The notes beneath the pieces were generated by a model. That model saw only the letters and a program-made list of their open reading frames with translations. It made no database searches and had not been told where the DNA came from. The position numbers and the translations under genes were made by a program. DNA of 64,000 bases from Candidatus Parcubacteria bacterium (GTDB taxonomy: Bacteria; Patescibacteriota; Microgenomatia; UBA12405): positions 146,077-210,076 of the forward strand of contig JAEWUV010000007.1 in assembly GCA_023396915.1 (NCBI GenBank), given 5' to 3'. Below are positions 1,482 through 45,189 of the stretch, in pieces; the stretch's first letter is position 1; each line of letters starts with the position of its first letter.

Positions 1482-3477
1482 GTTTAATTAAATAATAAAA
1501 ATGCAAAAGAATAAAAATATTTTTGACTCTTACATCAAACAATGAAAAACCATTTGACAAGTAATAGCAAAACCATAAACCTGCAACCATAAAACATAAA
1601 ACCGATTTTAAAAATAAAACTTTTTCTTTTGAATCTTTATCAACTTCAGTTAAAAGTACCAACATAATAGGAATTGAATATAAAAGACGATAAGCATACA
1701 CACTATTAGGAATTAAATTAATTACGGCACATGACAATATATACAATAATATATATAATTCTCTTTTTTTTAAAACTAAATATGAAAACATCTTGAAAAT
1801 ATTTTTCTTCCTCAAGTGAATAAAGGGTAAAACGAATACAAACAACAACCAAAATTTTGATATAAACGATACTAAACCAAACCGTATCAAACAAGTACCT
1901 TTGTTTACGCAACCAGTAAACAAAGTAGATATTGCCTTTATTGAATGGTTTGATACTAGGTAAAAAGGTTGTGAAAAATTACCATTAGAACCATTGTTAA
2001 ATAACAAAATACCATTCCAAATAGAAAAAATATCAGTACTCACCCCATATAAAACTGGCAAATAAGAAAAGGCTATAAAAGAAAACAAAAAAGACAATAA
2101 TGAAACCAAAACACTTCCAGAAAATAAGATTTCAATAATAGCAAATGGTAATAAAAAAAACTTTACATTACTTATATATCCAACCAAAAAACCAATAAAT
2201 AAAGACCGTAAAATCCTATTTTTTACAGGTATTTTAAGAGAAAAATAAAATAAAAAACCAATTAAAACAAATAAAAATAAATCTAAATTACCCCTCTCTA
2301 CCCCAAAAGCAAAAGGAAGCTGTAAAGAAAAAATTGAAACAAAAAGCAATAACAATAAACGATTTTTACTCTTAACTTTTAAAAAACATATCCAAATAAA
2401 TATTAAAAACAATAAAAAAAATAAAAATAGATACCACTTGTATAAAGTAATATGACAATTTAAAACATCATCAAAACTACAAACTCCATGATTTTTTAAA
2501 ACACTCAATAATGGAGCAAATGTGACTACTATACCAGTACCATAATTAGCAGCACCTTCAACAAAATTTCTTCCATTTAATAAATTATTGGCCGGTAAAA
2601 CTACACCAGTAAACAAATCTCTACCAACGGGAGATAAATAAAACAAAGACTCTGGTGCTTGAATTAAATTTTCAGAATTTCTATAGGAAACAACATACCT
2701 TGACAAGATAGTTAATAAAAGAATTACTAAAAACAAAATCAACGGATCCTTTTTAAGATTATTTTTAAACCACAAAAATATATTTTTGACTAACCAAGAA
2801 AACCAATAAAAAGCTTTCTTAAAAAAGTTAAATATGTTAATAATAAAAATCGAAAAGATAATTGCCAATAAATAATCTCCAATTGACAAAGATTTTAAAA
2901 GAGAAAATAACTTAGAAAATAAAAATATTGGAATTTCACGTTTATTTTGCAACAAATATTCCTTCGAATAACTATACTTACTAAGAAAAGAATTATTGAC
3001 AGCAAGTAGCTGAACTGAATTACCAATAACACCATCTACAGACTCGATTTCAATTACATATTCCTTCCCTTTTGATTTAGTTATCTCTGGAAAACCAAAA
3101 GGGAAATATAAACTATCTTGAAATTTACTTATTTCATAATCATTAACGTAATACCAATCATTACTAATAGATTCTTTAATCTTAAATCTTAGTAAACCAT
3201 GGTTAACTCTATTGTGTATATTAAATCTCATCGAAACTATACCTAATCTATTACTACTAGCTTCAAATCTTAAAACAACTTTTTCTCCTTCTAAAAGTTC
3301 TACGTCTTTAATATCATTAAATTTGTTAACTTGAGTTATTACTGTAGGATTAAATCCAATATAATTACTAAAACTTCTACTTTTTAACATCCCCATTAAT
3401 ACCAACACTAAAACAAAAACAAAAGGGAATAAACAAAACTTTACTTTATTAATATTTCTCATTCTCATACCAATCAT
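1450..3477 (-). CDS. large polytopic membrane protein (putative glycan polymerase / GT-C-like); function unknown
   Basis: 675 aa. N-terminal TM, then a ~150-aa soluble domain, then more than 10 hydrophobic helices. Lies inside a glycan operon. Confidence 0.4.
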   Translation of the reverse strand: MIGMRMRNINKVKFCLFPFVFVLVLVLMGMLKSRSFSNYIGFNPTVITQVNKFNDIKDVELLEGEKVVLRFEASSNRLGIVSMRFNIHNRVNHGLLRFKIKESISNDWYYVNDYEISKFQDSLYFPFGFPEITKSKGKEYVIEIESVDGVIGNSVQLLAVNNSFLSKYSYSKEYLLQNKREIPIFLFSKLFSLLKSLSIGDYLLAIIFSIFIINIFNFFKKAFYWFSWLVKNIFLWFKNNLKKDPLILFLVILLLTILSRYVVSYRNSENLIQAPESLFYLSPVGRDLFTGVVLPANNLLNGRNFVEGAANYGTGIVVTFAPLLSVLKNHGVCSFDDVLNCHITLYKWYLFLFFLLFLIFIWICFLKVKSKNRLLLLLFVSIFSLQLPFAFGVERGNLDLFLFVLIGFLFYFSLKIPVKNRILRSLFIGFLVGYISNVKFFLLPFAIIEILFSGSVLVSLLSFLFSFIAFSYLPVLYGVSTDIFSIWNGILLFNNGSNGNFSQPFYLVSNHSIKAISTLFTGCVNKGTCLIRFGLVSFISKFWLLFVFVLPFIHLRKKNIFKMFSYLVLKKRELYILLYILSCAVINLIPNSVYAYRLLYSIPIMLVLLTEVDKDSKEKVLFLKSVLCFMVAGLWFCYYLSNGFSLFDVRVKNIFILLHFYYLIKLGLEKTNEKK

Positions 3478-4294
3478 ACAAAATTTTTATACATTTTTTT
3501 ATATCTAAAAATTTGAAATCACCCAGTTCTTTTTTTAATCTCTTATTATCGCAAGTATATTCATCATTTAACCCCTCATTTTTTACTACAACCTCTGATT
3601 TTTTTTCTGCCACTTCGTTAATTATTCTAGCTATTGTCAATAAATCTATCTTTTCACCATTTCCAATGTTATAAAACTTATATTTCGCTTCGTGATTAAT
3701 AAAAAAATCAACAATTTTTACAAAATCATCAATATAAACATAAGTAAAATAAACATTTTGACTTATAGTGATTGGTAATCCAGCTAAATTTTGACAAATT
3801 GCATTTGAAATAAACCGATATCGATAATCTTCGTGTTTACCAAATAAACCAAAAATTCTTAAACTAACAATATCGTCCTGTCCTTCAATATATTTTGAAC
3901 AAATATATTTAAAAAATCCATAATCATCAACAGGAATATTTTTATCAAAATCACTTTCCTTTACATCAACAATAGACTTCGATTTATCATATTCCGCCCC
4001 TGATCCTAAATTAATCATTTTTCCAAATTTGTGTTTATTCCTAACAATATTAAAAAACATTCTTAAATTCTGAGACAATGCCGAATCAACTTGTTCTGCA
4101 GCTGTACTACCACCCACTATCGCTGCATGTATTACTACGTCAATTTTATTTTTATTAAAAAAATCATCTACCTTTTTACCATCAGTTAAATCCAATTCCA
4201 ATCTTGTTGGTGCTAAAAAATCATATTCATTTCTAAGTTTCTCATAAATATTTTTTCCTACGAAACCATTAACACCAGTCAACAAAATTTTCAT
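3449..4294 (-). CDS. short NAD(P)-dependent sugar-nucleotide reductase/epimerase (RmlD / CDP-paratose-synthase-like)
   Basis: MKILLTGVNGFVGKNIYEKL Rossmann motif, YICSK (YxxxK), 281 aa. Confidence 0.65.
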   Translation of the reverse strand: MKILLTGVNGFVGKNIYEKLRNEYDFLAPTRLELDLTDGKKVDDFFNKNKIDVVIHAAIVGGSTAAEQVDSALSQNLRMFFNIVRNKHKFGKMINLGSGAEYDKSKSIVDVKESDFDKNIPVDDYGFFKYICSKYIEGQDDIVSLRIFGLFGKHEDYRYRFISNAICQNLAGLPITISQNVYFTYVYIDDFVKIVDFFINHEAKYKFYNIGNGEKIDLLTIARIINEVAEKKSEVVVKNEGLNDEYTCDNKRLKKELGDFKFLDIKKCIKILYDWYENEKY

Positions 4295-4313
4295 ATTAAT
4301 TTAATATCCATTG

Positions 4314-4997
4314 TTATTTTATTGAAAAACCACCATCTATAACCACCACCGAGCCAGTCATATAAGTGTTTTTTTCAGAAACTAAAAACAAAACCAATTG
4401 GGCAATTTCCTCCGGATTAACTAATCTCTTTAAAGGGATATCTTCCTCCAATGCTTTTATCTTTTCTGGTGAATTTCTGGCTGTTACCAATTCAGTGTTG
4501 GTAAAACCAGGACAAACTGAATTTACTAAAATATTATCCTGTGCCAACTCTAAAGCCAAAGCCTTTGTCATTCCATTAATTCCATGCTTTGCAGAACAAT
4601 ACAAAACCTGTTTACCTCTAGCTACCACACCAAAAGCCGAACTTATATTAATAATTCTTCCCCATTTGTTTTTCTTCATATTACCAACAAAAGCTCGAGT
4701 TAATTTAATTGGAGCCAATAAATCTATCTGAAAAGTATCCTTTATATTCTTATCGTCCATCTCTTCAATCCACTGAGGGTAATTAATCCCAGCATTATTA
4801 ATTAATATATCTACTTTCAAACTCTTATTTTTTTTAATATATTGATTAATTGATTTATCATCAGACAAATCTAACTCCTGTCTAGTAGGGGAAATAACAC
4901 AATATTTATTCTCTAACAATAAATCCTTTATAGCCTTACCTATTCCCCTAGAAGCACCTGTAATTAAAACATTCTTCTTTAGATTGTTAATCATCAT
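4314..4997 (-). CDS. SDR-family short-chain dehydrogenase/reductase
   Basis: VLITGASRGIGKAI and NAG motifs, classic SDR, 227 aa. Confidence 0.8.
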   Translation of the reverse strand: MMINNLKKNVLITGASRGIGKAIKDLLLENKYCVISPTRQELDLSDDKSINQYIKKNKSLKVDILINNAGINYPQWIEEMDDKNIKDTFQIDLLAPIKLTRAFVGNMKKNKWGRIINISSAFGVVARGKQVLYCSAKHGINGMTKALALELAQDNILVNSVCPGFTNTELVTARNSPEKIKALEEDIPLKRLVNPEEIAQLVLFLVSEKNTYMTGSVVVIDGGFSIK

Positions 4998-5012
4998 ATC
5001 GTATTTTACATC

Positions 5013-6833
5013 CTATTCTTTGGTACCTCCACTTATGATCATGTTTTCTTTCATTTCCTTTTCTGAAATGAACGGACACATATCTTCAAGTGGAGGAGAA
5101 ATAAACCGGCCACCATCTACCATTTTTGTAGTTAATTTAGGAGTTAAAACTAAATCTCTAACAGTATTAATATCGCAAAGAACAGGGCCATCAAAATTCA
5201 AAACTTGCTTTATTTTCTTAACCATTTCTTGGTGATTATTAATTCTTACAGTCTTAATACCATAAGCCTGTCCTACTTTTACATAATCAGGACAACTAAC
5301 CCCACTGTTAGGATCAGACGCGACATGTCTACCATTAAATAAATTATCTTGGGTATTAACAATTGACCTGTATCCATTATTGCTATAAACAAATAATTTT
5401 ACTGGTAATTTATAATGTTTAATAACCTGTAATTCATGAACACTTAATTGCAAACTTCCATCACCCTCAAAACAAATAACCCTTTTTTTATTATTAGCAA
5501 AACAAGCACCTATCGCCGCCGGTAAACCATAACCCATCTGAGCAGCTCCCAAATTTAAAATTATCCTTTGATTTTTTTTAACTTTAAAAACTTGATAAGA
5601 ACAGTTCATTGGACCAATTCCATTAGACAATACCACAACCTCATTTTCCTTTAAAAAATCACAAACAGTGTTTATAAAACAATATTGATTAACATATTTT
5701 TTATCTTTACAAAAATCTTCGGAAAAGGGTGGATATTTTTCATTAATTTTCGAACAATAATTCAACCACCTCTTTATTTTTAAACTACTATTTTTTACTT
5801 TTTCTTTTAATTGTTTGATCATTTCGTCAATAAAATCTTTAGCGTCAAAATTAATCGGTAAATCCACTGATAAAATCGGTTTATCTAATTCGTTCTTGTC
5901 AATATCAACCATAATCTTATAAGCTTTTCTGGCAAAAGCCTTATAGTTAAAACCTACCGTTAAAATATCCATTCTAGCTCCAACAGAAAGTAAAAAATCA
6001 CTATTTTGAATAATAAAATTTGCTGCCCGTTGCCCCAAAGCATGAGCTCTTCCAAAATAATACGGATTATCATCAGCCACTAAATCATAACCCACATAAC
6101 TTGTTAAAACTGGTATTTTAAGTAACTTTATTAGTTTTAATAATTCTTTACTAGCGCCTGACAAATGAACTCCATTCCCAACATACAAAACCGGCCTTTC
6201 TGATTTTAAAAGTTTATTTATTGTTTTCATTACTAAACTAGACAACTTTTTTTTATCAATAGAAAAATCTAAATTGATTTCACTTTCTTTAAACTCCTTA
6301 AAATTCTTCTCATCAACCAAAGCCCCTTGAATATCCAACGGTATATCTAACCAAACTGGGCCTTGTCTTCCATGAGTTGCTAAAAACAAAGCTTTGTCTA
6401 AATGATATTTAATCTCATTAGGGTCCATCACTGTTACTGCATATTTTGTAATTGGTTTAACTAAATCAACTATATTAATTTCTTGTGGACCTAATTGTCT
6501 CATCCCTCCAATTTTAGCCCCCATTAATTCTCTTTTAACTTGACCAGAAATCATTAAAACCGGAATAGAATCCAACCAACTTCCCATCACTCCCGTAATC
6601 GCATTTGTTCCACCAGGACCAGTAGTAACCAAACCAACACCAAATCCACTTAAGCGCGAATATCCTTCAGCAGCGGTAGACACTGCTTCTTCGTGGTGAC
6701 AACAAACATAATTAATATTACTTCTACCCAAAGAATCAACTAAATGTATATTTCCACCACCAGACAAAAGAAAAACATCCTTTATTCCTTTAGTATTTAA
6801 ATACTTAAAGACAAAATCGCTAAGTTTTATCAC
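5013..6833 (-). CDS. thiamine-pyrophosphate-dependent enzyme, acetolactate-synthase large-subunit-like (YerE-like sugar branching enzyme candidate)
   Basis: N-terminal TPP pyrimidine-binding region (LVTTGPGGTNAITGVMGSWLDSIPVLMISGQV) and C-terminal GDGS...NN TPP-binding motif. 606 aa. Confidence 0.8.
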   Translation of the reverse strand: MIKLSDFVFKYLNTKGIKDVFLLSGGGNIHLVDSLGRSNINYVCCHHEEAVSTAAEGYSRLSGFGVGLVTTGPGGTNAITGVMGSWLDSIPVLMISGQVKRELMGAKIGGMRQLGPQEINIVDLVKPITKYAVTVMDPNEIKYHLDKALFLATHGRQGPVWLDIPLDIQGALVDEKNFKEFKESEINLDFSIDKKKLSSLVMKTINKLLKSERPVLYVGNGVHLSGASKELLKLIKLLKIPVLTSYVGYDLVADDNPYYFGRAHALGQRAANFIIQNSDFLLSVGARMDILTVGFNYKAFARKAYKIMVDIDKNELDKPILSVDLPINFDAKDFIDEMIKQLKEKVKNSSLKIKRWLNYCSKINEKYPPFSEDFCKDKKYVNQYCFINTVCDFLKENEVVVLSNGIGPMNCSYQVFKVKKNQRIILNLGAAQMGYGLPAAIGACFANNKKRVICFEGDGSLQLSVHELQVIKHYKLPVKLFVYSNNGYRSIVNTQDNLFNGRHVASDPNSGVSCPDYVKVGQAYGIKTVRINNHQEMVKKIKQVLNFDGPVLCDINTVRDLVLTPKLTTKMVDGGRFISPPLEDMCPFISEKEMKENMIISGGTKE

Positions 6834-6835: not shown

Positions 6836-7891
6836 CTATTCCTTATTATTAAAATAAACTAAATAATCTTCTATATCTTTTTTAAATTCTTTGTTAAATT
6901 TTAATCTAACAACACTTATTTTACCAATCCCTTCACATAAAATAGCATCCACTTCGTCTCCAATGACTTTCTTGTCTGTTTTTAAAAATTTCATATATAA
7001 GTCGATATTATCAACTGGAAACGTTTTAAAAGATATAAATTTTTTAATAAAAAGATGAATCCTTAAAAATTCATCTTTTAGTAAAATTCCTCTTTTCATT
7101 GAAATAAAATTAGCTAAATCTATCCCCATTAAAACAGCTAAACCATGAGGGATTTTATTTTTTGTATAGCCTTCTAATGCATGTCCAAAAGTATGACCAT
7201 AATTAAGTAATTTTCTTATATTTTTTTCTAATTCATCTTTCTCAACAATTTCCTTCTTTATAAGCAAACTCTTATAAACTACATCTTCAGTTACTTTACT
7301 ATTCTTTTCCAAATCAGAATAAAACACTCCTCCTTTAATTAATGCGTGTTTTATTATCTCTCCAATACCATTAATTGAATCGACTTCAGACAAAGTATTT
7401 AAAAAACTTATATTTATATATATTTCTATAGGAGGATGAAAAGAACCAACTTGATTTTTAAAACCGCCTATATTGATTCCAGATTTAGCCCCAATACAAC
7501 TATCCACCATAGAAAGAAGTGTAGTGGGAACAAAAACCCAATCAATCCCTCGTTTTATTATATGTGAAGTAAAAGATCCAATATCTTGAACTAAGCCACC
7601 TCCAATTACAACAACTTTATCTTGTTTTTGAATCCCGTTATCCAATAAAAAATAAACATACTTGTTAACTTCATTTAAGGTTTTATTTTTTTCAACCGCT
7701 TCAAAATAATTAACCGATTTAGCCAACGAAACTCCTAATTTCAAATTATCCTTATAAAGATTCCAAATATTTTTATCTATTAAAAAATGACAACGATATT
7801 TTTTAACCAACTCGTTGGTTAAATTATTTAAATTTTTAATAAAAATAACTTCATAATCTTTAATACTAGATTTTATTTTTATATTTCTCAT
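6836..7891 (-). CDS. 3-dehydroquinate-synthase-like sugar phosphate cyclase family protein
   Basis: VVVIGGGLVQDIGSF...PTTLLSMVDSCIGAKSGIN...GSFHPP...HGHTFGHALE aligns to AroB core motifs. Confidence 0.75.
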   Translation of the reverse strand: MRNIKIKSSIKDYEVIFIKNLNNLTNELVKKYRCHFLIDKNIWNLYKDNLKLGVSLAKSVNYFEAVEKNKTLNEVNKYVYFLLDNGIQKQDKVVVIGGGLVQDIGSFTSHIIKRGIDWVFVPTTLLSMVDSCIGAKSGINIGGFKNQVGSFHPPIEIYINISFLNTLSEVDSINGIGEIIKHALIKGGVFYSDLEKNSKVTEDVVYKSLLIKKEIVEKDELEKNIRKLLNYGHTFGHALEGYTKNKIPHGLAVLMGIDLANFISMKRGILLKDEFLRIHLFIKKFISFKTFPVDNIDLYMKFLKTDKKVIGDEVDAILCEGIGKISVVRLKFNKEFKKDIEDYLVYFNNKE

Positions 7892-8820
7892 TTTTTAATT
7901 AAATAATTTATAGCTTCATAAACCGCACCTACTGGAGATTTTTTTATTTCCAAAACATACGGAGGTGCATACACATTCGATTTTATAATATTACCATCAT
8001 TAGTGAAACTATAAGGATAGCTTAATAATCCCTTATTATTATCATTAGGAGAATCTCCAAAAGTAGCTAATTGATTATCTTTTATTTTTAATTTCTTAAC
8101 TAAATTTTTCATCATATACAATTTCCCATCAACAATCTTTCCATTAATTCTTAAGTTTCTACCCACATCAGCAAATGGTAAATTTCCCCAAGAAACACAT
8201 AAATCATAAGGGGTCAACTTTCTTCTCAACACATTAATGATTTTCTTTTGTTCATTAATATCTGACGGTAAGACAAAAGTAACCTTAACAGCTTCAGCAA
8301 AAACACAACCCTTAGAATTACAAGAAATCTTGTAACAAGTCTCTGGCATTAAATCCTTTGGAGGTTTATTTTTCAAAAATTCATTAAAAAAAATTTTTGA
8401 TTTTAGGTCTGGTTCAACCTTTAACTTCTTGTAAACATCAAACGTTTTTTTTAATAAAGATTTATCAAAACTATTAGAATATATTTTTTTAACAAACACT
8501 TTTTTAGGAGTAAAAGTTAATCTATTTAAAACTGCTCCTGTTCCGCCAGACCGCCAAACAGTAAAAGAACAGTCGTTCTTCATACAAAATATCAAACCCA
8601 ACTCTCTAAGTTTAATGTCTAAAGTGGTGTTTCTTCCTGATACAAAAGCAAAATCTATTCCACTCTGAAACACACGAAAAGCCAACTCAATCACATTATC
8701 TAGTGAATTATAAGTTTTATCATTCCTATCATACACTGTTCCATCATAATCAACCGCAATTAATTTTACACCTCCACACTTTACTTCTTCTAATTTTTGC
8801 CACACTAAACTATTTTTCAT
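7888..8820 (-). CDS. HAD-superfamily (IIB, Cof-like) phosphatase
   Basis: KLIAVDYDGTV (DxDGT motif I), FVSGR, FGDSPND (motif IV). Confidence 0.7.
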   Translation of the reverse strand: MKNSLVWQKLEEVKCGGVKLIAVDYDGTVYDRNDKTYNSLDNVIELAFRVFQSGIDFAFVSGRNTTLDIKLRELGLIFCMKNDCSFTVWRSGGTGAVLNRLTFTPKKVFVKKIYSNSFDKSLLKKTFDVYKKLKVEPDLKSKIFFNEFLKNKPPKDLMPETCYKISCNSKGCVFAEAVKVTFVLPSDINEQKKIINVLRRKLTPYDLCVSWGNLPFADVGRNLRINGKIVDGKLYMMKNLVKKLKIKDNQLATFGDSPNDNNKGLLSYPYSFTNDGNIIKSNVYAPPYVLEIKKSPVGAVYEAINYLIKK

Positions 8821-9401
8821 TTACCTAATTTTAAATCATTTAAATTTTTTAAAATAAATTTAAGACAATCTGAATTTTCCGTATCCACTTCTACAACTGG
8901 CCAAAAATCTATCTTTTCAAAAAAACTTTCTGCCCATCTTAATTGTTTCAAGGTAGTTATATTTGAAAAACTACCTTCCTTTTTTCTTTTATTCAATCTT
9001 TTAACAATTTCATTATCTCCCGGCTTTTTTAAATAAAATATTCTTAAAGGTATCTTATACTTAAGCAAATAATCCTTTAAGACAACCAATGGCGCCTTAA
9101 ATTCTTTCCTTGAAAACGTAGCCGGTAACAAAACTGATTCACCTGAAGAAACCATATACCAAGCCTTAGAACAAAAATAAGCATAAACCGCAGCCATTAT
9201 AGGAAATTCTTCACTTTCAGTTAATAATTTAGGAGTCTCTCCATTGCATCTGTTTGGATCGATTAAGGTTCTAATTCTGTCCAACTCTAAAATCTCAAAG
9301 TTTGACACGCTTTTAATTTTCTTAGCCAAATAATCCTTTCCTCTCAAGGGGGAGCCATATACAACAACCACACAGGGTTTATATTTATGTTTTTTTACCA
9401 T
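8817..9401 (-). CDS. P-loop kinase-like protein (divergent Walker A GSPLRGKD)
   Basis: VVVVYGSPLRGKDYLAKKI looks like a P-loop at the N-terminus, 194 aa. Translationally coupled to the HAD and DHQS-like genes. Confidence 0.4.
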   Translation of the reverse strand: MVKKHKYKPCVVVVYGSPLRGKDYLAKKIKSVSNFEILELDRIRTLIDPNRCNGETPKLLTESEEFPIMAAVYAYFCSKAWYMVSSGESVLLPATFSRKEFKAPLVVLKDYLLKYKIPLRIFYLKKPGDNEIVKRLNKRKKEGSFSNITTLKQLRWAESFFEKIDFWPVVEVDTENSDCLKFILKNLNDLKLGK

Positions 9402-9456
9402 ATTTGCCTACAAAAGTCATTATAACAAACTAGTTGGTATTATTATTTTTTAATTT

Positions 9457-10650
9457 ATGATACAATCATCCTATAATAATTACAACGTTATGAACAATAA
9501 TTCAATTTTCGATGATCTTTTCGTTTTAGAATTAGCCAATAACCATTGGGGAGACGTAAATAGAGGACTAAAAATTATCAGTGACTTTTCTAAAATTGTT
9601 AGATTTAATAATGTACGTGCTGCTATAAAATTTCAATTTCGCGATGTTGATAACTTTATTCACCCAGATTATATAAATAGAACTGATGTTCGATATATAG
9701 GCAAAACACTAGCCACTAAACTATCAGATCAAAATCTCGATATCCTAGTAAAAGCTTGTAAAAAAAGTGGTTGTATTACTATGGCCACACCTTTCGACGA
9801 AAGATCAGTTGATCTTTGTACCGAATTAAATATTGAAATAATAAAAATTGCTAGTTCTGATATTAATGATTGGGTTTTAATTGAAAAAATCGCCACTACT
9901 AAAAAACCAGTGGCTATGTCTACAGGAGGATCATCTTTAAAAGATATAGATGATTTAGTAAAATTCTTCGAAAATCGCAATATTCCATTAGCTATTAATC
10001 ATTGCGTATCTATTTATCCATCAGAAGATAACGAACTTGAATTAAACCAAATTGATTTTCTTAAAAACAGGTATCCTGACCACGTAATCGGGCTATCTAG
10101 CCATGAATACCATGATTGGGATTCATCAATAACGATTGCCTATGCCAAAGGTGCTAGGACTTTTGAAAGACATATAGACATAAGCACTGAAGATAAAACA
10201 GTTAGTCCATACTGTTCCTTACCACACCAAATAGACAAATGGTTCAAAGCTTTTCATAAAGCCAGAGAAATGTGTGGTGGTAGCGCAGATACAAAAAGAG
10301 TCCCTCCAAAAAAAGAAATTGATTATTTAGACCAATTAGTCAGAGGTGTCTATGCCAAAGAAGACCTACCAATAGGACATGTATTATCTGATGCAGATAT
10401 ATTTTTAGCAATTCCTTTACTTAAAGGTCAAATTTCTTGTCGAGAACTTATGTCTGGAGAAGTTCTCATCAAGCCAGTTGAAAAAAATAAACCAATTTTT
10501 ATTGATATGATAGATAGCCCATACGCTTACAATGAAGAACTTAAAAAAACAATATATGAAAGAGGAATAGATATGACTCCACCCGCAGAGACAGAAACAC
10601 CAAAAGAAAGTACTAATCAAACTCAACCAATCTTCAACAATCCTAAATAA
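9457..10650 (+). CDS. NeuB-family PEP-dependent aldolase (sialic/pseudaminic/legionaminic acid synthase-like) with C-terminal SAF domain
   Basis: LELANNHWGD, IKFQF, MATPFDERSVDL...IIKIASSDINDW, CVSIYPS, IGLSSHE and TFERHID all align with NeuB motifs. Confidence 0.8.
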   Translation: MIQSSYNNYNVMNNNSIFDDLFVLELANNHWGDVNRGLKIISDFSKIVRFNNVRAAIKFQFRDVDNFIHPDYINRTDVRYIGKTLATKLSDQNLDILVKACKKSGCITMATPFDERSVDLCTELNIEIIKIASSDINDWVLIEKIATTKKPVAMSTGGSSLKDIDDLVKFFENRNIPLAINHCVSIYPSEDNELELNQIDFLKNRYPDHVIGLSSHEYHDWDSSITIAYAKGARTFERHIDISTEDKTVSPYCSLPHQIDKWFKAFHKAREMCGGSADTKRVPPKKEIDYLDQLVRGVYAKEDLPIGHVLSDADIFLAIPLLKGQISCRELMSGEVLIKPVEKNKPIFIDMIDSPYAYNEELKKTIYERGIDMTPPAETETPKESTNQTQPIFNNPK

Positions 10651-11614
10651 TTTTTTTGTACCAATCAAAAATACCTTTAGAAGTTTTTGATATTAAACTT
10701 TCATTTTTCCACCCAATCTTTTTTATTTTGTCATAATTTAATGATTGGTAGGGGATTTCGTTTTTAGCAATATTTAAAACTTTATAAGGAACTTTTTTAC
10801 CCAAAGCTTTTTCAATTTCTTTTATTAAATCTATTACCGACAAAGTATCATTTGATCCAAAATTAAAAGCTTCACCTTTTACTTCATCAATTTTTTCGGC
10901 CAACATCAAATAACCTTTCACCACATCTTTGACATATAAATAATCACGCACTGCTTTACCATCGCTTCTCAACTCTAAAGTTTCATTTTTAAGTAAAGAC
11001 ATCATAATTCCTGGAATAATCCGAGAAAAATTATTATCACCTTCACCATAAATATTTCCAAATCGAGTAATAACCACTGGTACTTGGTAAGTTTTAAAAT
11101 ACATTCTCGAAATCAAATCAGTCGCCGATTTTGACACATCATAAGGATGATCACCTTTTACCGGGTCTGTTTCTATATACTGTCCCGAAGCTAATTTACC
11201 ATAAGCTTTATCTGACGATGCCACTACAACTGCTTTTATTTTTGGATAAAGCCTGGCGCTTTCCAATATATTTGTTGTCCCCATCACATTCGACTTTATG
11301 GTTTTTAACGGATTAGCATAAGCTGTAGTCACTATTGCCTGAGCCGCCAAATGGAAAATATAATCAATTTCAAATTTCGTTACTAAATCCATCACTCCAT
11401 CAAAATCAGCTATATCTACCTGTGCCATAACAACTTTTTTATCAAATCCTTTCACCATAAAATAAGACAAAGGATCGGTGTATTCAAAAGTAGTTACAAC
11501 ATTAGCCCTCTGATTGATTAATTCCTCAACTAAATGAGATCCAACAAAACCAGTTCCACCCGTCACTAAAACATTTTTTCCTGCAAATTTATTTTTTATT
11601 TCCATATTTTCCAA
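10643..11614 (-). CDS. rfbG: NDP-hexose 4,6-dehydratase, CDP-glucose 4,6-dehydratase-like
   Basis: VLVTGGTGFVGSHL, FHLAAQ, TNVMGT, SSDKAYG, YDVSK. Lies adjacent to rfbF. Confidence 0.65.
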   Translation of the reverse strand: MENMEIKNKFAGKNVLVTGGTGFVGSHLVEELINQRANVVTTFEYTDPLSYFMVKGFDKKVVMAQVDIADFDGVMDLVTKFEIDYIFHLAAQAIVTTAYANPLKTIKSNVMGTTNILESARLYPKIKAVVVASSDKAYGKLASGQYIETDPVKGDHPYDVSKSATDLISRMYFKTYQVPVVITRFGNIYGEGDNNFSRIIPGIMMSLLKNETLELRSDGKAVRDYLYVKDVVKGYLMLAEKIDEVKGEAFNFGSNDTLSVIDLIKEIEKALGKKVPYKVLNIAKNEIPYQSLNYDKIKKIGWKNESLISKTSKGIFDWYKKII

Positions 11615-12375
11615 GGTGGATTAGATTCACTCCACCAAGTGTTTAAATCCTTTAATTCCTTATTAGTATCCATACAAGCCCAAAAACCATCATGGTTATA
11701 CAATGAAAGCTGTTTTTCTTTGGCCAATCTTTGCAATGCTGGATGCTCTGTTTCACCAGGTCTTAAATATTTAAAAAATTCTCTATTAAACACCATATAT
11801 CCACCGTTAACCCAATCGTTCATTACTGGTTTTTCAGTAAACTCTTTAACCTTATTTTTCGAATCAACTAAAACAACACCAAATTTAGAAATCGGATGTA
11901 TTCCGGTTATTGTCCCTATTGTTTTTTGTCTTTTGTGAAATTCTAATAATTTTTTTATATTAATATCACTCACACCATCTCCGTAAGTCACCATAAAACT
12001 TTCATCTTCTTTTGGAATATATTTTTTACATTTTAAAATTCTTTCGCCTGGCATAGTTTCTAAACCCGTATCCACAAAAGTAATTTTAAAATCATCAACT
12101 TCTTCTCTGTTTTCCATATGGTACTCACATTCAAAATCTTTTGTATTTAAAGTAAAATCAGAAGTCAAAGCCTTTTGGTTCAAAAAGAAAGTTTTTATAT
12201 AGTCACCTTTGTAACCCAAAGCCAAAATAAACTCATTAAATCCGTAAAACGAATACATTTTCATGATATGCCACAAAATTGGCTTATTACCCACATATAC
12301 CATTGGCTTTGGTTTAAATTCCGTTTCTTCTCGCAACCTAGTTCCTTGACCACCACAAAGAATAATAACTTTCAT
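11596..12375 (-). CDS. rfbF: glucose-1-phosphate cytidylyltransferase
   Basis: MKVIILCGGQGTRLREETEFKPKPMVYVGNKPILWHIMKMYSFYG is nearly diagnostic of RfbF. Confidence 0.85.
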   Translation of the reverse strand: MKVIILCGGQGTRLREETEFKPKPMVYVGNKPILWHIMKMYSFYGFNEFILALGYKGDYIKTFFLNQKALTSDFTLNTKDFECEYHMENREEVDDFKITFVDTGLETMPGERILKCKKYIPKEDESFMVTYGDGVSDINIKKLLEFHKRQKTIGTITGIHPISKFGVVLVDSKNKVKEFTEKPVMNDWVNGGYMVFNREFFKYLRPGETEHPALQRLAKEKQLSLYNHDGFWACMDTNKELKDLNTWWSESNPPWKIWK

Positions 12376-12415: not shown

Positions 12416-13648
12416 TTGCAAATGTTTAATTTTAAATATTACTTCAAAAAACAAGTTATCGATTTTCAAAAATATGGTTGGGCTGGAGTATTTACCAAAA
12501 TCAAAAATAGACTTATATACCCAATTTTAAAAATTAGGATAAAAAAAATTCTAAAAACAGCCAAAAACTATCATCGTAAATCCATACTCATCGTCAATGG
12601 TGCCGAAAAATCTGTTTCTGAAATTCACCGAGTAAAACATTTAGAAGACAAACTTAAAATATTAAACATTCCTTTTTTATCCTTAACTGATAATTTACTT
12701 AATCGTTTTACTCCAAGAAATATTAATAAATTTAATTTACTTTATATTCATCGATGCCCTTACAAAAATAACATTATTACATTAATTAACGATTTTAAAA
12801 ATCAACACAAACTGGTTATCTATGATATTGACGATCTAATTTTTGACAAAGACCAACTTAAAAAAATAAGTTTTCTTAAAAACATGAACTCACGATTTTG
12901 CCATCAATTTATTCAAAATACCGACGTTCATTTAAAAATTATGAAGAGGTGTGATTTTACAATCACACCAACTAAATTTCTTTCTCAATACATCAACAAA
13001 AAATATAAAATCCATACCAAAGTTTTACGTAACCACTTGGATCAAAGCAGTCTAGACAAAGGCCGAAAAATTTACCAAGCTCAAAAACAATCTCAAAATA
13101 AAAATATAACCATCGGCTATTTTTCCGGTACTAAAACTCATGACAAAGATTTTCAAATTATTCAACCTTCACTTCAAAAACTTTTGACTCAAAACCCAAA
13201 TTTAAATCTAAAAATAGTCGGTATCTTAGATATAAATTCAAGTCTTAACAAATTCAAAAATCAAATAATCACCCACAAAAAAGTTCCTTATAAAAGATTA
13301 ATGAACTTGTATAAAGGTGTTGATATCAATATCGCCCCTTTAGAAATAAATAATGATTTTTGTGAAAGCAAAAGTGAATTAAAATATTTCTTTGCCGCCG
13401 CTTGTGGTATTCCTACCGTCGCTTCTGCCACCGACGCTTTTAAACACGCTATCAAACAAGGAGAGAACGGTTACCTTTGTAAAAATTCATCCGATTGGTA
13501 TCAATATTTAAATCGACTTATTCAAAATAAAAAAGAAAGATTAGTTATGGGTAAAAAAGCCTTTATCCAAACCAAACAAGAATATTCACCCAAATATCAA
13601 GCTAAACAACTTAAAAAGATACTAGAAGAAGTAAAATTTTATGACTAA
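12416..13648 (+). CDS. GT-B fold glycosyltransferase (GT4-like C-terminal domain)
   Basis: C-terminal ESKSELKYFFAAACGIPTVASATDAFKHAIKQGENGYLC resembles the GT4 E-x7-E region. Divergent from rfbF with a 40-bp spacer. Confidence 0.6.
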   Translation: MQMFNFKYYFKKQVIDFQKYGWAGVFTKIKNRLIYPILKIRIKKILKTAKNYHRKSILIVNGAEKSVSEIHRVKHLEDKLKILNIPFLSLTDNLLNRFTPRNINKFNLLYIHRCPYKNNIITLINDFKNQHKLVIYDIDDLIFDKDQLKKISFLKNMNSRFCHQFIQNTDVHLKIMKRCDFTITPTKFLSQYINKKYKIHTKVLRNHLDQSSLDKGRKIYQAQKQSQNKNITIGYFSGTKTHDKDFQIIQPSLQKLLTQNPNLNLKIVGILDINSSLNKFKNQIITHKKVPYKRLMNLYKGVDINIAPLEINNDFCESKSELKYFFAAACGIPTVASATDAFKHAIKQGENGYLCKNSSDWYQYLNRLIQNKKERLVMGKKAFIQTKQEYSPKYQAKQLKKILEEVKFYD

Positions 13649-14627
13649 TCAAGTATACGGTGTCAGCTTTATTATTCCCACCTGGAACAAGAAAGATTTA
13701 ATTATAAAATGTATCCAGCTACTTGATAAACAACTGTCTATCGAACGTCCTGAAATCAAAAAAGAAATTATTGTGGTCGAAAACGGCTCTACTGATGGTA
13801 GTTTTGAGGCTTTATCAAAACTTAAAACTAAAACTCCTTTTAAAATCCTTGCTCAAAAAACTAATCTGGGTTTTGCCAAAGCTATTAATTTGGCCGTCAA
13901 AAAGGCTAAATATGACTACCTTTATTTTCTTAATAATGACATGGAAGTTCAAAATGGATTTTTCACAGAAATTACCAAAACAGGCAATAATCTATTATCA
14001 AAAAATATTAGCTTTTTTGGCATTGCTTCACAAATATTTTTCTTTAATCCAAAGGTAAAGCGGGTAGAATCCGGCAAAACCTGGACTCAGTTTAAAAATG
14101 GAAAATTATTAGTGGGGCATGAATTAAACCCCAAAAAACTTACTCAAATTTCACCAACTGCTTACTGTGGAGGGGGATCATCTTTGATTAATAAACAAAT
14201 ATTTAATCTCCTTGGTGGCTTAGATAGCAAAGTTTATATTCCTATGTACTGCGAAGATTTAGATTTAAGTTTTGTTGCCTGGAAAAAAGGTTACCCATCC
14301 TACTTTTGCCCCAATTCAAAAGTAATTCATCACCACCGCAGCAGTAGTAAACTTTTATCTATTAGCCCCGATTATTATATTCACAAAAATTATTTATCTT
14401 TTTGTCTTAAAAATTTTGACAGTCCAATATTATTATCCAAATTATTTTTATACTACCCACTTTATTTAATCTTTAAAAAAGATTATGGGAAATATTTAAT
14501 TGATAACCTAAAAAACCTAAAAAATATTAAACGTTCTAAAGATAAATTAAAAAAAATACCCAATAAATACAAAGATATTAAACTAATAAATTTCAAATTT
14601 TTTATTAAAACATATGAACAAACCTAG
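13641..14627 (+). CDS. family 2 glycosyltransferase
   Basis: VSFIIPTWNKKDLIIKCIQ...VVENGSTDGS. Confidence 0.75.
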   Translation: MTNQVYGVSFIIPTWNKKDLIIKCIQLLDKQLSIERPEIKKEIIVVENGSTDGSFEALSKLKTKTPFKILAQKTNLGFAKAINLAVKKAKYDYLYFLNNDMEVQNGFFTEITKTGNNLLSKNISFFGIASQIFFFNPKVKRVESGKTWTQFKNGKLLVGHELNPKKLTQISPTAYCGGGSSLINKQIFNLLGGLDSKVYIPMYCEDLDLSFVAWKKGYPSYFCPNSKVIHHHRSSSKLLSISPDYYIHKNYLSFCLKNFDSPILLSKLFLYYPLYLIFKKDYGKYLIDNLKNLKNIKRSKDKLKKIPNKYKDIKLINFKFFIKTYEQT

Positions 14628-14827: not shown

Positions 14828-16123
14828 ATGAAACGAGATATCACAAGTAAATTATTGGAATGGAAAAACTCAGAAAACCGTAAACCATTAATTTTAACCG
14901 GCGCCAGACAAGTTGGGAAAACCTGGATTTTAAAAGAATTTGGCAAGCAATACTATCAAAATACTGCGTACATCATGTTTGAAAAAAACGAAAACATGAA
15001 AAAATTATTTGACGGATCTCTGTCGCCCAAAGATTTATTACCTTTTCTTCAAGCAGAGACTAACATCTCAATAGACCCAAAAAATACATTGATAATTTTT
15101 GATGAAATCCAAGCCGTCCCCAATGCCATTACCTCTCTTAAGTTTTTCAACGAGGAAGCACCGGAATATTCAATTATTGCTGCCGGTTCCACGTTAGGAG
15201 TTACCTTACACAATAGTGGATCTTTTCCCGTTGGTAAGGTAAATTTTATGACTCTTTATCCTATGACGTTTTTGGAATTTTTAGATGCCAACAATGAAAA
15301 ACAATTAACAGATTTAATAAAAAATACAAAAGAGTTATCTTCGATAAATATATTTCACGAAAAATTAGATAAATATCTCAAACAATATTTTTTGATTGGC
15401 GGGATGCCTGAAGTTGTTAAAAAATATATTGAAACAAACAGTTTTGAAGAAGCTCGTACAATTCAAAAACAATTACTTGACTCTTACAACCAAGATTTTT
15501 CCAAATATACAACACCCATAGCTGCAACTAAACTTCAAATGGTTTGGAAATCAATTCCTTCTCAAATAACCAAAGAAAATCGTAAATTTATATATGGAGC
15601 AGTTAAAAATAGTGCCCGAGCCAGAGATTTCGAAACCACTATACAGTGGTTAGTTGACAGTTCATTAGTAAATAAAATTAATCGAGTTAGTCTACCTAAA
15701 CCACCATTAAAAAGTTACGAGGAATTTGAGATTTTTAAGTTATTTCTGCATGATATTGGTTTACTTGGAGCTATGGTTAACGCATCACCAAAATCAATCA
15801 TCAACAATAATAATATTTACACTGAATTTAAAGGAGCATTAGCAGAACAATTTGTTTGTCAGGAGTTAATAGCCTCCGGGATAGAAACATTCTATTGGTC
15901 AGCTAATGACTCAAGACAAGAAATAGATTTCTTGACAGAAAGAAATAATGAAGTTATTCCTATTGAAGTAAAATCAGGAAAAAATTTAACATCAGTTTCA
16001 TTTAATAGATTTATGAAGGCTAACCAGTCAAAATATGGTTATAAAATATCAAATAGGCCTTATATGAATAACAAAAAAATAATAAATTTACCATTATATT
16101 TAACCTCAACAATATCCCAATAA
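14828..16123 (+). CDS. AAA+ ATPase of the AAA_14/DUF4143 family (function unknown)
   Basis: Walker A TGARQVGKT, Walker B LIIFDEIQ, then a C-terminal DUF4143-like region. 431 aa. Confidence 0.7.
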   Translation: MKRDITSKLLEWKNSENRKPLILTGARQVGKTWILKEFGKQYYQNTAYIMFEKNENMKKLFDGSLSPKDLLPFLQAETNISIDPKNTLIIFDEIQAVPNAITSLKFFNEEAPEYSIIAAGSTLGVTLHNSGSFPVGKVNFMTLYPMTFLEFLDANNEKQLTDLIKNTKELSSINIFHEKLDKYLKQYFLIGGMPEVVKKYIETNSFEEARTIQKQLLDSYNQDFSKYTTPIAATKLQMVWKSIPSQITKENRKFIYGAVKNSARARDFETTIQWLVDSSLVNKINRVSLPKPPLKSYEEFEIFKLFLHDIGLLGAMVNASPKSIINNNNIYTEFKGALAEQFVCQELIASGIETFYWSANDSRQEIDFLTERNNEVIPIEVKSGKNLTSVSFNRFMKANQSKYGYKISNRPYMNNKKIINLPLYLTSTISQ

Positions 16124-16125: not shown

Positions 16126-17184
16126 AATCTTCTTCTAGTCTCTGCTATTTCACCAACCCCTCAAACCAGTGGGGGATCGGTAAGAATAAAAAACACACTC
16201 GAACAACTTTCAAAATATTACCACGTCGATTTTGTTACTTTTGACGAATCAAAAATTAAAACTCAATCAAAAAAAATAACTTCAAAAATCCCTTATTGGT
16301 TTTCACCTTGGTATAACCCAAAATTAATTTCTCAAATTCAAAAATTAACCTCCGAAAACAAATACGACATTATTCAAATCGAGTTTAGCCAATTACTTTA
16401 TTTAGCTAAATATTTACCCCAAAACACCCGAAAAATCTTCACTGCTCACGACATTTCCACTATTTCTTTTTATCGTCGTGTTTCAGAAGACAATCCATCA
16501 ATTTTAAAAAAAATAATCAGGCTTTTATTTTTTCTTCAAATTTATTTCTACGAAAAAAAATACCTACCAAAATTCGATACTATTATTACTGTTTCCCAAA
16601 AAGACCAACAAACACTACAAAAATGGCTACCAGACAAAAACATAATTTGTTTGGAAAACGGCATTGAAAAAATAAATTTTCTGTCTAAAAAACCATCAAA
16701 AATACTTAAACTTGGCTATATCGGATCCTTTAACCATACTCCAAACTTAAATGCTGTTAAATATTTTTTCGACAAAATCGCCCCGTTATTTAACAAAGAA
16801 AAAATTAAATATGAATTCTACTTAGCCGGAAACAATGATCCTCAATTCATTAAAAACAATTTCCCTAAGGCCATAAATTTAGGAAAAGTAAAATCAGTAA
16901 AGGATTTTTACAAAAAAATCGACTGTCTAATTACCCCGATTTTTGCTGGCTCCGGTTCTCGAATCAAGATTCTTGAAGCGTTAAGTTTTGGTATTCCTGT
17001 CGTTTCCAGCCCTGTTGGTGCCGAAGGAATAAATGTAAAATCCGACTACCTTCAAATAGCCAAAACTCCACAAGATTATATAAAATACCTTAAAAATCTC
17101 TCCAAAAGCAATCAACAACTCAAAAAAGAACTTAGCCCATTATTATGGACAAACATATTTAAAAAATACCCACAATTTATTTAA
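16126..17184 (+). pseudogene. GT4 glycosyltransferase lacking a start codon (5' end displaced by the ATPase insertion)
   Basis: Frame open from 16072 with no ATG/GTG before the TTG at 16651. Translation NLLLVSAISPTPQTSGGSVRIKNTLEQL... through to the C-terminal GT4 motif EALSFGIPVVSSPVGAEG. Confidence 0.6.
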
Positions 17185-17189: not shown

Positions 17190-18179
17190 ATGGTCAATAT
17201 TGCTTTTTCCTCCGATAATAATTACGCCTCATTTTTGTGTGCCTCCATTTTTTCTTTACTCAAAAATTCCAATAAACAAAACAAATATAATATTTATATT
17301 TTAGACGGAGGAATATCTAAAATAAACAAGACCAAAATTTTAAACAGCATCAAACAATTTAAAAACAAAAAAATAGAATTTATTAAAGTAAACCAAGAAA
17401 TTTTTAAAAATATTAAACAGTTTCTCTAACTTAATCAATCATCATATTACCGTTTATTATTACCACAGATTCTTCCAAAAATTAAAAAAATAATTTACTG
17501 TGACTGTGACCTTTTAATTTTAAAAGATATTTCAAATTTATATAACCAAAAACTTGGCAACAATTTGATTGGTTGCTGTCAAATATTTCACCCAAATTAC
17601 CAATCAATCTTACAAAGAATACATCCCCAAACAAAAATCAGACAGGCTATAAATTCGGGTGTAACCTTAATGAATTTAGATAAACTCAGACAAGGAAACT
17701 ATTCTAAAATTTTTATAAACTTTGTTAACAGAAATTCTCACAAACTTATTGCTGGTGACCAAGATGTTTTAAATATTGTTCTGTCTAACAAAATTAAGAT
17801 CATCAACCCAAAATGGAATACCACATCATATCTTTTTGTCGTTAATAATTATAAAAAATGTAATTTATCCAAAAAATTATTTAACACATGTACCCAAAAT
17901 CCCTCAATTGTTCATTTTGACGGTATAAAACCATGGATTAGCGGATCGTCTCATCCATACAAAAAAATATTTTTCAAATATATTAAAAAAACTGAATTTA
18001 AAGACTACAAAATAAAACCAAATCTTAAAAAATTTTTATTTAATCAAGTCTTTTATCTTGGTAATAAGATCGCTAATTTATTACCCCAAAAGATATATAA
18101 TCTAGTCGAAAAACAATATCTTAAAAATAATTTTTTAGAAAAACGTTACCAACAAATTATTAAAAATGAAACTAAGTAA
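17190..18179 (+). pseudogene. GT8-family glycosyltransferase interrupted by an in-frame TAA at 17427-17429
   Basis: ORFs 17190-17429 and 17565-18179 are in the same frame. Sequence after the stop reads LNQSSYYRLLLPQILPKIKKIIYCDCDLLIL (GT8 DxD region). Preceded by MVNIAFSSDNNYA (GT8 N-terminus). Confidence 0.6.
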
Positions 18180-19788: not shown

Positions 19789-20110
19789 TTTTAACTGAAA
19801 TCTTTCTAACTAATTTCTCTATCTGACTTTCCAAATTTCTTATCTTTATATTATTTTCAATAGTTATATAAGTCAAAACCATAAATGCCAAAATCATTCC
19901 CAAATCCATTACCCGAACAATAAATAATTCTTTTAACAAAGGCTCTAATAATTTTGGAAACAAAGCCATAAAAGCAAATACCCCAAAAATAATAATCCAA
20001 CCAATAAATAATTTCGTCGAAATGTTTTTCTTTTTCCAATGCAAAAACAACGAATAAGTCATAAACAAAGCAAAAGCCAACAAAATTATTTGTAAATAAA
20101 TAATACTCAT
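19778..20110 (-). CDS. small 3-4 TM membrane protein (DUF2304-like GT2 partner)
   Basis: 110 aa, hydrophobic helices, overlaps the GT2 start by 11 nt. Confidence 0.4.
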   Translation of the reverse strand: MSIIYLQIILLAFALFMTYSLFLHWKKKNISTKLFIGWIIIFGVFAFMALFPKLLEPLLKELFIVRVMDLGMILAFMVLTYITIENNIKIRNLESQIEKLVRKISVKSEK

Positions 20111-27789: not shown

Positions 27790-28138
27790 TCTCCTTTTCA
27801 ACGATAAGTTACAAAAACTTTCAGTGCGTCTTCTGAATAGATTCCAAAGAGACAAGAGATAACCACCTTTACCCAGACCCAAAAATCAATTTTTTTCATG
27901 CTAATTCTCCTTTATTTTGGTTAGTTACATAGCAACGATATATTCAAGCTTCAAAAAAGTTTAAGAAGCATTAATTTTCTGCGGATTTTAAAAGAGCGAA
28001 TAAAACATACATTTCGGACGCCTTGTCCAAAAGAATTTTATTCACAAAAACAATGATATTCTATTGAATATCGACGGTAATTTTACCAAAACCAAACTTA
28101 GAAGTCAAAAATTATAGGATATACTTTGTCTTGTAATT

Positions 28139-39034: not shown

Positions 39035-39043
39035 ACTACTCTT

Positions 39044-45185: not shown

Positions 45186-45189
45186 GGCA

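Follow-up and report, generated by a model that had tools for sequence, protein, structure and literature searches.

The acyl-branched sugars erwiniose, caryophyllose and gastriose are formed by adding a branch to CDP-4-keto-3,6-dideoxyglucose, and the branch is then reduced (PMC9306805; PMC12247030). According to the unifying scheme of Steitz et al. 2022, ErwE, MMAR_2332 and MyGE, all of them YerE-like, take functionalised C4-C8 alpha-keto acids for this purpose from an aldolase encoded in the same cluster (PMC9306805). Here we describe a related locus on a 64-kb stretch of contig JAEWUV010000007.1 (positions 146,077 to 210,076 of assembly GCA_023396915.1, Candidatus Parcubacteria bacterium), which was analysed as a whole and is called the window below. 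It carries a NeuB-family gene, named NeuB-like in the following, close to the gene of a putative YerE-like thiamine-diphosphate (ThDP) carboligase and to genes for CDP-glucose metabolism. This combination of an aldolase with a YerE-like ThDP enzyme follows the same logic as ErwI/ErwE/ErwF (erwiniose), MMAR_2331/MMAR_2332 (caryophyllose) and MygI/MyGE (gastriose). From its sequence and genomic context we propose, with a probability of roughly 0.6, that the NeuB-like enzyme supplies the keto acid for a long-branched CDP-sugar of the cell surface which is made by the ThDP enzyme.

The window and the known acyl-branched-sugar clusters have in common CDP-glucose genes, a ThDP carboligase, a putative 4-hydroxy-2-keto-acid producing enzyme, an NAD(P)H-dependent reductase and glycosyltransferases. 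They differ in the supplier of the keto acid. Judged by gene position, this is a phosphoenolpyruvate (PEP)-dependent NeuB fold in the window, whereas the named aldolases of the published scheme are pyruvate-dependent class II types (BphI-like or HpcH/citrate-lyase-like). The generic product of a NeuB-fold synthase, a 3-deoxy-2-ulosonic acid, is itself a 4-hydroxy-2-keto acid and as such belongs to the donor type of that scheme. Two further differences are the missing E1 3-dehydrase of the window and the presence of a HAD phosphatase and/or a module around a dehydroquinate synthase (DHQS)-like gene in some of the ortholog loci.

Family membership and residues of the NeuB-like protein

The NeuB-like open reading frame (ORF; 9457..10650, plus strand) encodes 397 amino acids (aa) and represents a PEP-dependent aldolase with TIM barrel and SAF domain, a candidate 3-deoxy-2-ulosonate (alpha-keto acid) synthase. 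Pfam NeuB (PF03102) matched residues 56-275 with E=1.7e-40 and 139.5 bits, far above the gathering cut-off of 22.1 bits, and SAF (PF08666) reached 21.7 bits (E=3e-4) against a cut-off of 21 bits when the C-terminal 122 aa were scanned alone. An AlphaFold model built with 31 orthologs had a mean pLDDT of 85.7. In Foldseek it aligned over its full length (336-348 columns) first with 3g8r and then with NeuB 1xuu and PseI 8h2c, while DAH7PS and KDO8PS barrels ranked well behind (E ~2e-10). An earlier note on this DNA, made from the sequence alone, had called the motifs of both domains clear. For the barrel this holds; the SAF domain is real as judged by the model, yet marginal by sequence, where the word was generous.

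The true start of the gene is probably the ATG at 9490, giving a protein of 386 aa, because the public gene call (P0001, 386 aa) and the N-termini of the orthologs both point to it. The ATG at 9457 is overlapped by a -10-like TATGAT, although a search for promoters and terminators in the surroundings of the gene gave, as a whole, no signals above those of shuffled sequence. At its 3′ end the gene converges with an rfbG-like gene. The overlap of 8 nt noticed earlier is exact and can be read directly from the sequence, as the stop codon TAA of the NeuB-like gene occupies 10648-10650 on the plus strand and that of the minus-strand gene is found as CTA (TAG on its own strand) at 10643-10645. A pseudogene or chance ORF was ruled out by the full-length reading frame, 60 positions invariant in 80 orthologs and the confident model.

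For comparison of the active sites, residues of Neisseria meningitidis NeuB (NmNeuB) were transferred by pairwise alignment and then checked in 80 orthologs. The metal ligands H215 and H236 are retained as H216 and H239, and so are all PEP-binding and catalytic residues (E25, K53, T110, K129, S132, S154, S213 and E234 of NmNeuB). In window numbering, E25, K58, Q60, T111, K130, S133, S155, Y187, S214, H216, E237 and H239 are kept in 78-80 of the 80 orthologs. The sugar pocket, in contrast, has changed: E134 is replaced by D135 (78/80 orthologs), N184 by S185, D247 by S250 (Ser in 80/80) and Arg314 by Ile319 (Ile in 61/80, Val in 19/80), the last with moderate confidence since it depends on a local alignment. 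In NmNeuB, Arg314 contacts the N-acetyl group. This residue of the SAF domain is essential there (Joseph et al. 2013, cited in PMC8208679). The changes E134D and R314V have also been reported for eukaryotic NanS, whose substrates are phosphorylated sugars, and E134 has been placed near the expected phosphate site (PMC8208679).

The pocket inspection which the earlier note had recommended thus returned an intact metal and PEP set together with diverging sugar-side residues (E134D, N184S, D247S, R314I/V). Likeness to NeuB, PseI and LegI extends to the TIM barrel with a swapped SAF domain, to both His residues that bind the metal, to the Lys, Ser and Thr residues for PEP and to the equivalents of E25 and E234, while the sugar-side exchanges and scores far under the family cut-offs set the protein apart. 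With the NCBIfam models for N-acetylneuraminate synthase (TIGR03569) and PseI (TIGR03586) it scored 117.6 and 118 bits, both below threshold (399.65 and 340.25 bits, respectively). Its matches in the PDB were 3g8r with 208 bits, N. meningitidis NeuB with 82, Bacillus subtilis SpsE with 65 and PseI with 57 bits. The closest solved structure, 3g8r, is a Chromobacterium violaceum 'SpsE' from structural genomics (phmmer E=2e-60, Foldseek E=6e-34, ~35% identity), which shares a clade-specific insertion at residues ~60-85 but stands outside the tight clade of 59-82% identity formed by the orthologs described below. The NeuB-like gene is a real member of the NeuB family with intact catalytic residues, and it lies outside the NeuB and PseI equivalogs.

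Conserved partners of the NeuB-like clade

Orthologs were collected by scanning one genome per species, which gave 80 loci; one Acidicapsa locus brought the set to 81, and the window copy L001 makes 82 (L-numbers are locus labels). ORFs were called in each locus and searched with the window proteins, and nearby ORFs were additionally clustered unsupervised. The orthologs in the 81 further loci have 59-82% identity and occur in at least 15 phyla. Among their hosts are Patescibacteria, Acidobacteriota, Planctomycetota, Alpha-, Beta-, Gamma- and Deltaproteobacteria, Spirochaetota, Elusimicrobiota, Chloroflexota, Actinomycetota, Firmicutes, Verrucomicrobiota, Bacteroidota, Zixibacteria, Sumerlaeota and Melainabacteria.

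A YerE-like ThDP enzyme was found within 8 kb of the NeuB-like gene in 78 of the 82 loci when the window protein was used as query, and unsupervised clustering placed the ThDP enzyme on top of all clusters after the NeuB-like protein itself (74 loci). The gap between both genes is shorter than 300 bp in 45 of these 74 loci. In 44 of the 45 the genes share the same strand, and both orders occur (29 and 15); about 18 more loci have them one gene apart. The constant partner of the NeuB-like orthologs is the YerE-like ThDP enzyme, which the earlier note had not connected with this gene, and not the DHQS-like gene.

Several loci of the Patescibacteria type (L003, L005, L007 and L085, the last with genes at 8413-9915 and 3364-5178) have two ThDP genes near the NeuB-like gene, one of them strongly similar to the window enzyme (680-915 bits) and the second weaker (205-500 bits).

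Genes for the proposed acceptor and for later steps accompany the pair in many loci. RfbF homologs were present in 49-51 loci, RfbG in ~51 of 82, an E1-like DegT protein of ~450 aa in 51-52, and an extended short-chain dehydrogenase/reductase (SDR) of the window's type or of a second type in 54. GtrB-like GT2 proteins were found in 43 loci, GtrA in 21, and a HAD gene of some type within 2.5 kb of the NeuB-like gene in 39 of 81. Two methyltransferase families were represented in 38 and 30 loci, and O/C-methyltransferases are a frequent addition in the ortholog loci. Branches with methylation are known: gastriose carries methoxy groups. The acyl-branched cluster of R. palustris has a methyltransferase dependent on S-adenosylmethionine (PMC9306805). 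A search seeded with an actinobacterial ortholog for a named cultured mycobacterial ortholog, which would tie the clade to gastriose and MygI, returned metagenome and metagenome-assembled genome sequences only.

Enzymes of the NeuB/PseI/LegI type are accompanied by a CMP-synthetase, a 2-epimerase and an aminotransferase. All six-frame ORFs of the window were searched by phmmer with two CTP_transf_3 (NeuA/KdsB-type) proteins and one E1/DegT protein, and no CTP_transf_3, DegT/E1 or second NeuB protein was found in any of them. Neither CTP_transf_3 nor Epimerase_2 nor an aminotransferase appeared when the locus genes and those ORFs that could not be assigned by inspection were scanned with Pfam; the other ORFs were judged from their translations. 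The absence of NeuA, NeuC-type epimerase and aminotransferase genes from the neighbourhood, as claimed in the earlier note, therefore applies to the 64-kb window, and the place of these partners is taken by the ThDP enzyme in the NeuB-like clade.

CTP_transf_3 genes occur in only 2 of the 82 ortholog loci. The situation is different in the nearest sister group of the clade, which consists of NeuB-cupin fusions of ~500 aa with 35-47% identity (proteins P0126-P0270). Their cupin resembles D-lyxose or mannose-6-phosphate isomerase, and one protein of 723 aa is a NeuB-cupin-HAD_2 fusion. Each of these fusions may combine a pathway to KDN- or KDO-like sugars in one polypeptide. In both contexts retrieved (L083 1803-3974, L084 5653-7206), CTP_transf_3 adjoins the fusion gene. 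As the sister group has CTP_transf_3 and the ortholog loci almost never do, the missing CMP-synthetase is a property of the NeuB-like clade.

A conventional synthase of nonulosonic or ulosonic acids (Neu5Ac-, Pse-, Leg- or KDN-type), whose CMP-synthetase and precursor genes reside elsewhere in the genome, would be in agreement with the intact NeuB fold and catalytic residues and with the public annotation as 'N-acetylneuraminate synthase family protein' or 'SpsE'; moreover, the partner-gene search covered a 64-kb window of a ~0.9-Mb genome. This explanation is nevertheless improbable in view of scores of ~118 bits where 340 (PseI) and 400 (NeuB) are demanded, the replacement of Arg314 by Ile or Val and of D247 by Ser in 80/80 orthologs, CTP_transf_3 near only 2 of 82 loci, the lack of NeuA, NeuC and aminotransferase genes in 64 kb, and the conserved adjacency of the ThDP gene. 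Judging from scores, pocket residues and gene context, the enzyme does not belong to the synthases of sialic, pseudaminic or related acids, and the doubt expressed earlier that it is a true sialic acid synthase was justified.

Putative pathway, its order and the DHQS-like module

Divergently oriented to the NeuB-like gene, a densely packed operon on the minus strand encodes the putative ThDP enzyme and further candidate pathway enzymes. The NeuB-like enzyme would catalyse the metal-dependent condensation of PEP and an aldose, which may well be phosphorylated, to a 3-deoxy-2-ulosonic acid, i.e. a polyhydroxylated alpha-keto acid; our confidence in any specific substrate is low. The ulosonic acid would not be activated with CMP but would instead be the donor for the YerE-like ThDP carboligase (5013..6833, minus strand), which has three TPP_enzyme domains. 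Best matches of this protein in the PDB were 8rph (E=1e-119), followed by 5ahk (PpYerE). The structure 8rph is that of JanthE, a YerE-like enzyme (PMC12188165). The unusual CDG motif of JanthE was sought in the partner ThDP enzymes and is not shared by them; they have GDG instead.

The acceptor would be CDP-4-keto-6-deoxy-D-glucose, as no E1 is present in the window. Its synthesis can be assigned to two minus-strand genes downstream of the NeuB-like gene: an RfbF-like glucose-1-phosphate cytidylyltransferase (11596..12375; full-length match to TIGR02623 with 271 bits, cut-off 300) and an RfbG-like extended SDR similar to CDP-glucose 4,6-dehydratase (10643..11614; top NCBIfam match TIGR02622 with 196 bits, cut-off 278), whose translation contains SSDK and YxxxK motifs. 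The ThDP enzyme would decarboxylate the ulosonic acid and add the resulting acyl anion to C-4 of this CDP-sugar. An SDR would then reduce the branch carbonyl, before glycosyltransferases place the long-branched sugar in a surface glycan. A candidate YerF-like reductase for this step is the extended-SDR reductase or epimerase encoded at 3449..4294 on the minus strand (Pfam Epimerase, RmlD_sub_bind). The earlier note had instead suggested that the aldose may come from the adjacent pathway; we found no evidence for such an origin in the CDP-sugar pathway, whose CDP-sugar more probably accepts the product.

Phosphate brought in with the aldose would be removed by a HAD hydrolase. In the window, the HAD-IIB protein encoded at 7888..8820 on the minus strand (Hydrolase_3 E=7e-6; HAD-SF-IIB) is a candidate sugar-phosphate or ulosonate-phosphate phosphatase, and its homologs adjoin the NeuB-like gene in loci of the Patescibacteria type, namely L003-L006, L008, L009 and L085. 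The changes E134D and R314I and the frequent HAD neighbour point to a phosphorylated aldose and a dephosphorylation step. Likewise, the exchange of E134 for D and of R314 for a hydrophobic residue is shared with NanS (PMC8208679), and the frequent HAD partner of the clade points to both a phosphorylated aldose and a phosphorylated product. The likeness has limits in what follows the aldol step. Animal NANS/NANP and Bacteroides KDN-9-phosphate synthase/phosphatase pairs make products which are dephosphorylated and then CMP-activated, while the NeuB-like clade has a decarboxylating ThDP enzyme in place of CMP activation.

Several points weigh against the proposed pathway. The role of all members of the clade is deduced from sequence and genomic context. 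The window itself is without the E1 3-dehydrase that most ortholog loci have, so that the acceptor would be a 6-deoxy and not a 3,6-dideoxy keto-sugar, and about half of the ortholog loci have no HAD gene. In the published scheme, all aldolases with a named family are pyruvate-dependent and of BphI or HpcH type (PMC9306805); the family of MygI is left unstated in the text consulted, and the literature examined contains no experimental precedent for a NeuB-type keto-acid supplier. Finally, gene adjacency leaves the order of the reactions unfixed; substrates, sequence of steps and product are given here as predictions.

This last point bears on a reverse order, in which the ThDP enzyme, like YerE, first uses pyruvate to attach a short (acetyl) branch to the CDP-keto sugar, and the NeuB-like enzyme then extends a carbonyl of this nucleotide sugar with PEP. 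Adjacency alone cannot order the two steps, and YerE itself prefers pyruvate (PMC12247030). We nevertheless consider this order very improbable: the substrates of NeuB-family enzymes are open-chain aldoses, free or phosphorylated, the NeuB-like protein has no evident element for nucleotide binding, and HAD partners fit a small phospho-sugar substrate better. Furthermore, the equivalent order was tested and rejected for ErwE, which refuses pyruvate (Steitz et al., PMC9306805).

The operon also encodes a DHQS-like protein, annotated here as putative sugar-phosphate phospholyase or cyclase (6836..7891, minus strand; TIGR04425 342 bits with a cut-off of 400, aroB 253 bits with a cut-off of 305). 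Among PDB proteins the true DHQS 3clh was found with E=9e-47, far above EEVS, DDGS and DOIS. Printed alignments showed that all residues binding phosphate, carboxylate and metal in the DHQS substrate complex with 3-deoxy-D-arabino-heptulosonate 7-phosphate (DAHP) are kept, namely R in RG..PTTLL, D, K in GAKS, N in KNQ, E..IK, K, R..LNYGHTFGH, HG and DKK. Part of the same accessory module is a FabG-like classical SDR (4314..4997, minus strand; adh_short_C2 E=2e-45), which was detected in 12 loci, among them all nine loci positive for the DHQS-like gene including L001. The first gene of the operon (8817..9401, minus strand) encodes a P-loop protein of 194 aa which is weakly kinase-like (AAA_33 17.5 bits, E=0.0055, below cut-off) and has homologs in L004 and L009 only. 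A PDB sequence search gave no match for this protein or for the HAD-IIB protein.

Of the 81 other ortholog loci, only 8 carry the DHQS-like gene (9 of 82 when L001 is counted). Its occurrences are scattered over the NeuB-like tree, within Patescibacteria and within Elusimicrobia and Spirochaete clades, and the pocket residues of the NeuB-like protein do not differ between loci with and without it. It is therefore not a defining partner of the NeuB-like family, yet neither is it a stray aroB. Its closest relatives (45-67% identity; metagenomic) are encoded beside NeuB-like and ThDP genes (L085, L086, L089) or beside a ThDP gene (L087), and nearly always adjoin a gene for NeuB-like or another 2-keto-3-deoxy-acid aldolase. 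A sugar kinase of the FGGY family accompanies the DHQS-like gene in 7 of 7 positive genome loci outside Patescibacteria as well as in 4 metagenome loci; none of the DHQS-like-negative loci has one. The cassette of SDR, DHQS-like protein and FGGY kinase recurs in L035, L047, L049, L050, L063, L070, L072, L086, L089, L088 and L090. In the metagenome contigs L088 (2849-10690) and L090 (4289-14820) it stands without NeuB-like or ThDP gene, next to genes for CTP_transf_3, TAL_FSA aldolase, SIS isomerase, HAD_2 and GFO/IDH/MocA proteins, and in L088 only also for an HpcH/HpaI aldolase. The distribution of the cassette suggests a portable module which is attached to pathways of ulosonic acids and serves to remodel them. 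The window is without FGGY kinase and offers the weak P-loop protein as its only kinase candidate.

According to the earlier note, the NeuB-like enzyme would be an analogue of DAHP synthase which feeds the DHQS-like cyclase. As a primary role this would mean condensation of PEP with a tetrose phosphate, after which the DHQS-like protein and the FabG-like SDR form a carbocyclic (quinate-like) or 7-deoxy product. The resemblance to the shikimate pair is considerable, as a PEP-aldolase barrel and a DHQS-like gene with the full DAHP-type ligand set lie 1.6 kb apart, although in divergent units. The DHQS-like protein is nearer to true DHQS than to EEVS, DDGS or DOIS, its relatives stand beside NeuB-like and ThDP genes or, in the L088 and L090 modules, beside other ulosonate-type genes, and the dedicated FGGY kinase accompanies it outside Patescibacteria. 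In addition, the NeuB-like fold resembles the DAH7PS and KDO8PS barrels, and E134D and R314I fit a phospho-sugar substrate. On the other hand, the window aldolase belongs to the NeuB family and not to DAH7PS, and the genes lie in a glycan locus together with an SDR and a kinase; they co-occur in ~10% of the ortholog loci, with identical NeuB-like pocket residues whether or not the DHQS-like gene is present. The universal partner is the ThDP enzyme (74-78 loci), and a cyclised DHQ-like product, no longer an alpha-keto acid, could not be a donor for the ThDP enzyme, whose gene nevertheless comes directly after that of the DHQS-like protein in the operon. The dedicated kinase further suggests that phosphate is added after and not before the aldol step, and the window has only the weak P-loop candidate for it. 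As the main role we therefore regard the DAHP-synthase analogue as unlikely, while it is credible as a side branch given the intact DAHP residues.

In such a side branch, which we put forward tentatively as an addition in the window to the supply of keto acid for branching, the NeuB-like enzyme may form a DAHP-like heptulosonate, with its phosphate either coming from the aldose or being added by the P-loop protein. The DHQS-like protein and the FabG-like SDR might then either eliminate phosphate without cyclisation and reduce the keto group, leading to an omega-deoxy alpha-keto acid for a caryophyllose-type branch, or form a quinate-like carbocycle for the glycan. Since a fully cyclised product is unusable by the ThDP enzyme encoded directly downstream, elimination and reduction, i.e. 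the omega-deoxy keto acid, are weakly favoured over the carbocycle.

A function of the DHQS-like gene as substitute for HAD in phosphate removal is not supported, because Elusimicrobia-type loci are without HAD either way and the window has both genes.

Remaining features of the window and significance

Downstream of the reductase gene, the minus strand encodes a 675-aa polytopic membrane protein (1450-3477) without Pfam match, which has a homolog in L087, and a GT2 glycosyltransferase of 279 aa (642-1481; Glycos_transf_2). Divergent from the rfbF-like gene, two plus-strand glycosyltransferase genes of the GT1 and GT2 type (12416..14627) were identified by the Pfam families on the identical public contig; they probably use the product of the proposed pathway. 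They are followed by an AAA_14/DUF4143 ATPase gene (14828-16123) and by short glycosyltransferase ORFs, including a 177-aa GT1-type piece (16651-17184) and GT8 pieces at ~17565-18179, which are two genes in the public annotation. These short ORFs look like decayed or interrupted glycosyltransferase genes.

The G+C content of the window is low (26-37%), and its closest named relatives are Patescibacteria (Shapirobacteria, Roizmanbacteria). The first 24 kb, which contain the glycan locus with the NeuB-like gene, have 25-33% G+C compared to 33-38% at 24000-64000. This pattern is characteristic of surface-polysaccharide loci that are exchanged horizontally. A second, larger glycan locus (34042-49112, plus strand) comprises about ten GT1 and GT2 genes as well as genes for an O-antigen-ligase-like membrane protein (41084-42511), a mannose-1-phosphate guanylyltransferase (47380-48474) and a WbaP-like initiating transferase (48471-49112). 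This is a large glycan machinery for a small Patescibacteria genome. The ORFs 25210-26934 (574 aa), 27169-27882 (237 aa) and 57202-57849 (215 aa) had no Pfam match at E<=0.01, and ORF 20107-20742 (211 aa) had none at E<=1.

A full-text literature search returned no text linking a NeuB-type enzyme or sialic acid synthase to YerE-type branching; the study of Krug et al. (2024), in which over 200 YerE-like clusters were surveyed, lay outside that search, so the association may have been noticed before. The clade is annotated as 'sialic acid synthase / SpsE' and forms a tight group in at least 15 phyla (e.g. Patescibacteria, Acidobacteriota, Elusimicrobiota, Chloroflexota and Proteobacteria), whose members very probably make no sialic-type sugars. 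Genome surveys in which sialylation or host mimicry is deduced from counts of NeuB homologs would consequently over-call these traits.

Should the DHQS-like module act as suggested, an activity of the DHQS family would have been recruited to surface-glycan synthesis, and the cassette of SDR, DHQS-like protein and sugar kinase would be a portable ulosonic-acid remodeller feeding either a ThDP enzyme or a CMP-transferase. If the proposed role of the NeuB-like enzyme is correct, biocatalysis would gain a matched pair of a synthase for chiral polyhydroxy keto acids and a carboligase accepting them. The unifying long-branched-sugar scheme of 2022 would be widened to include PEP-dependent donor supply, and the NeuB fold would have a second outlet besides CMP activation, namely decarboxylative C-C grafting by a ThDP enzyme. 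It would also predict that many environmental bacteria produce undiscovered branched sugars with C6-C8 polyhydroxyalkyl chains.

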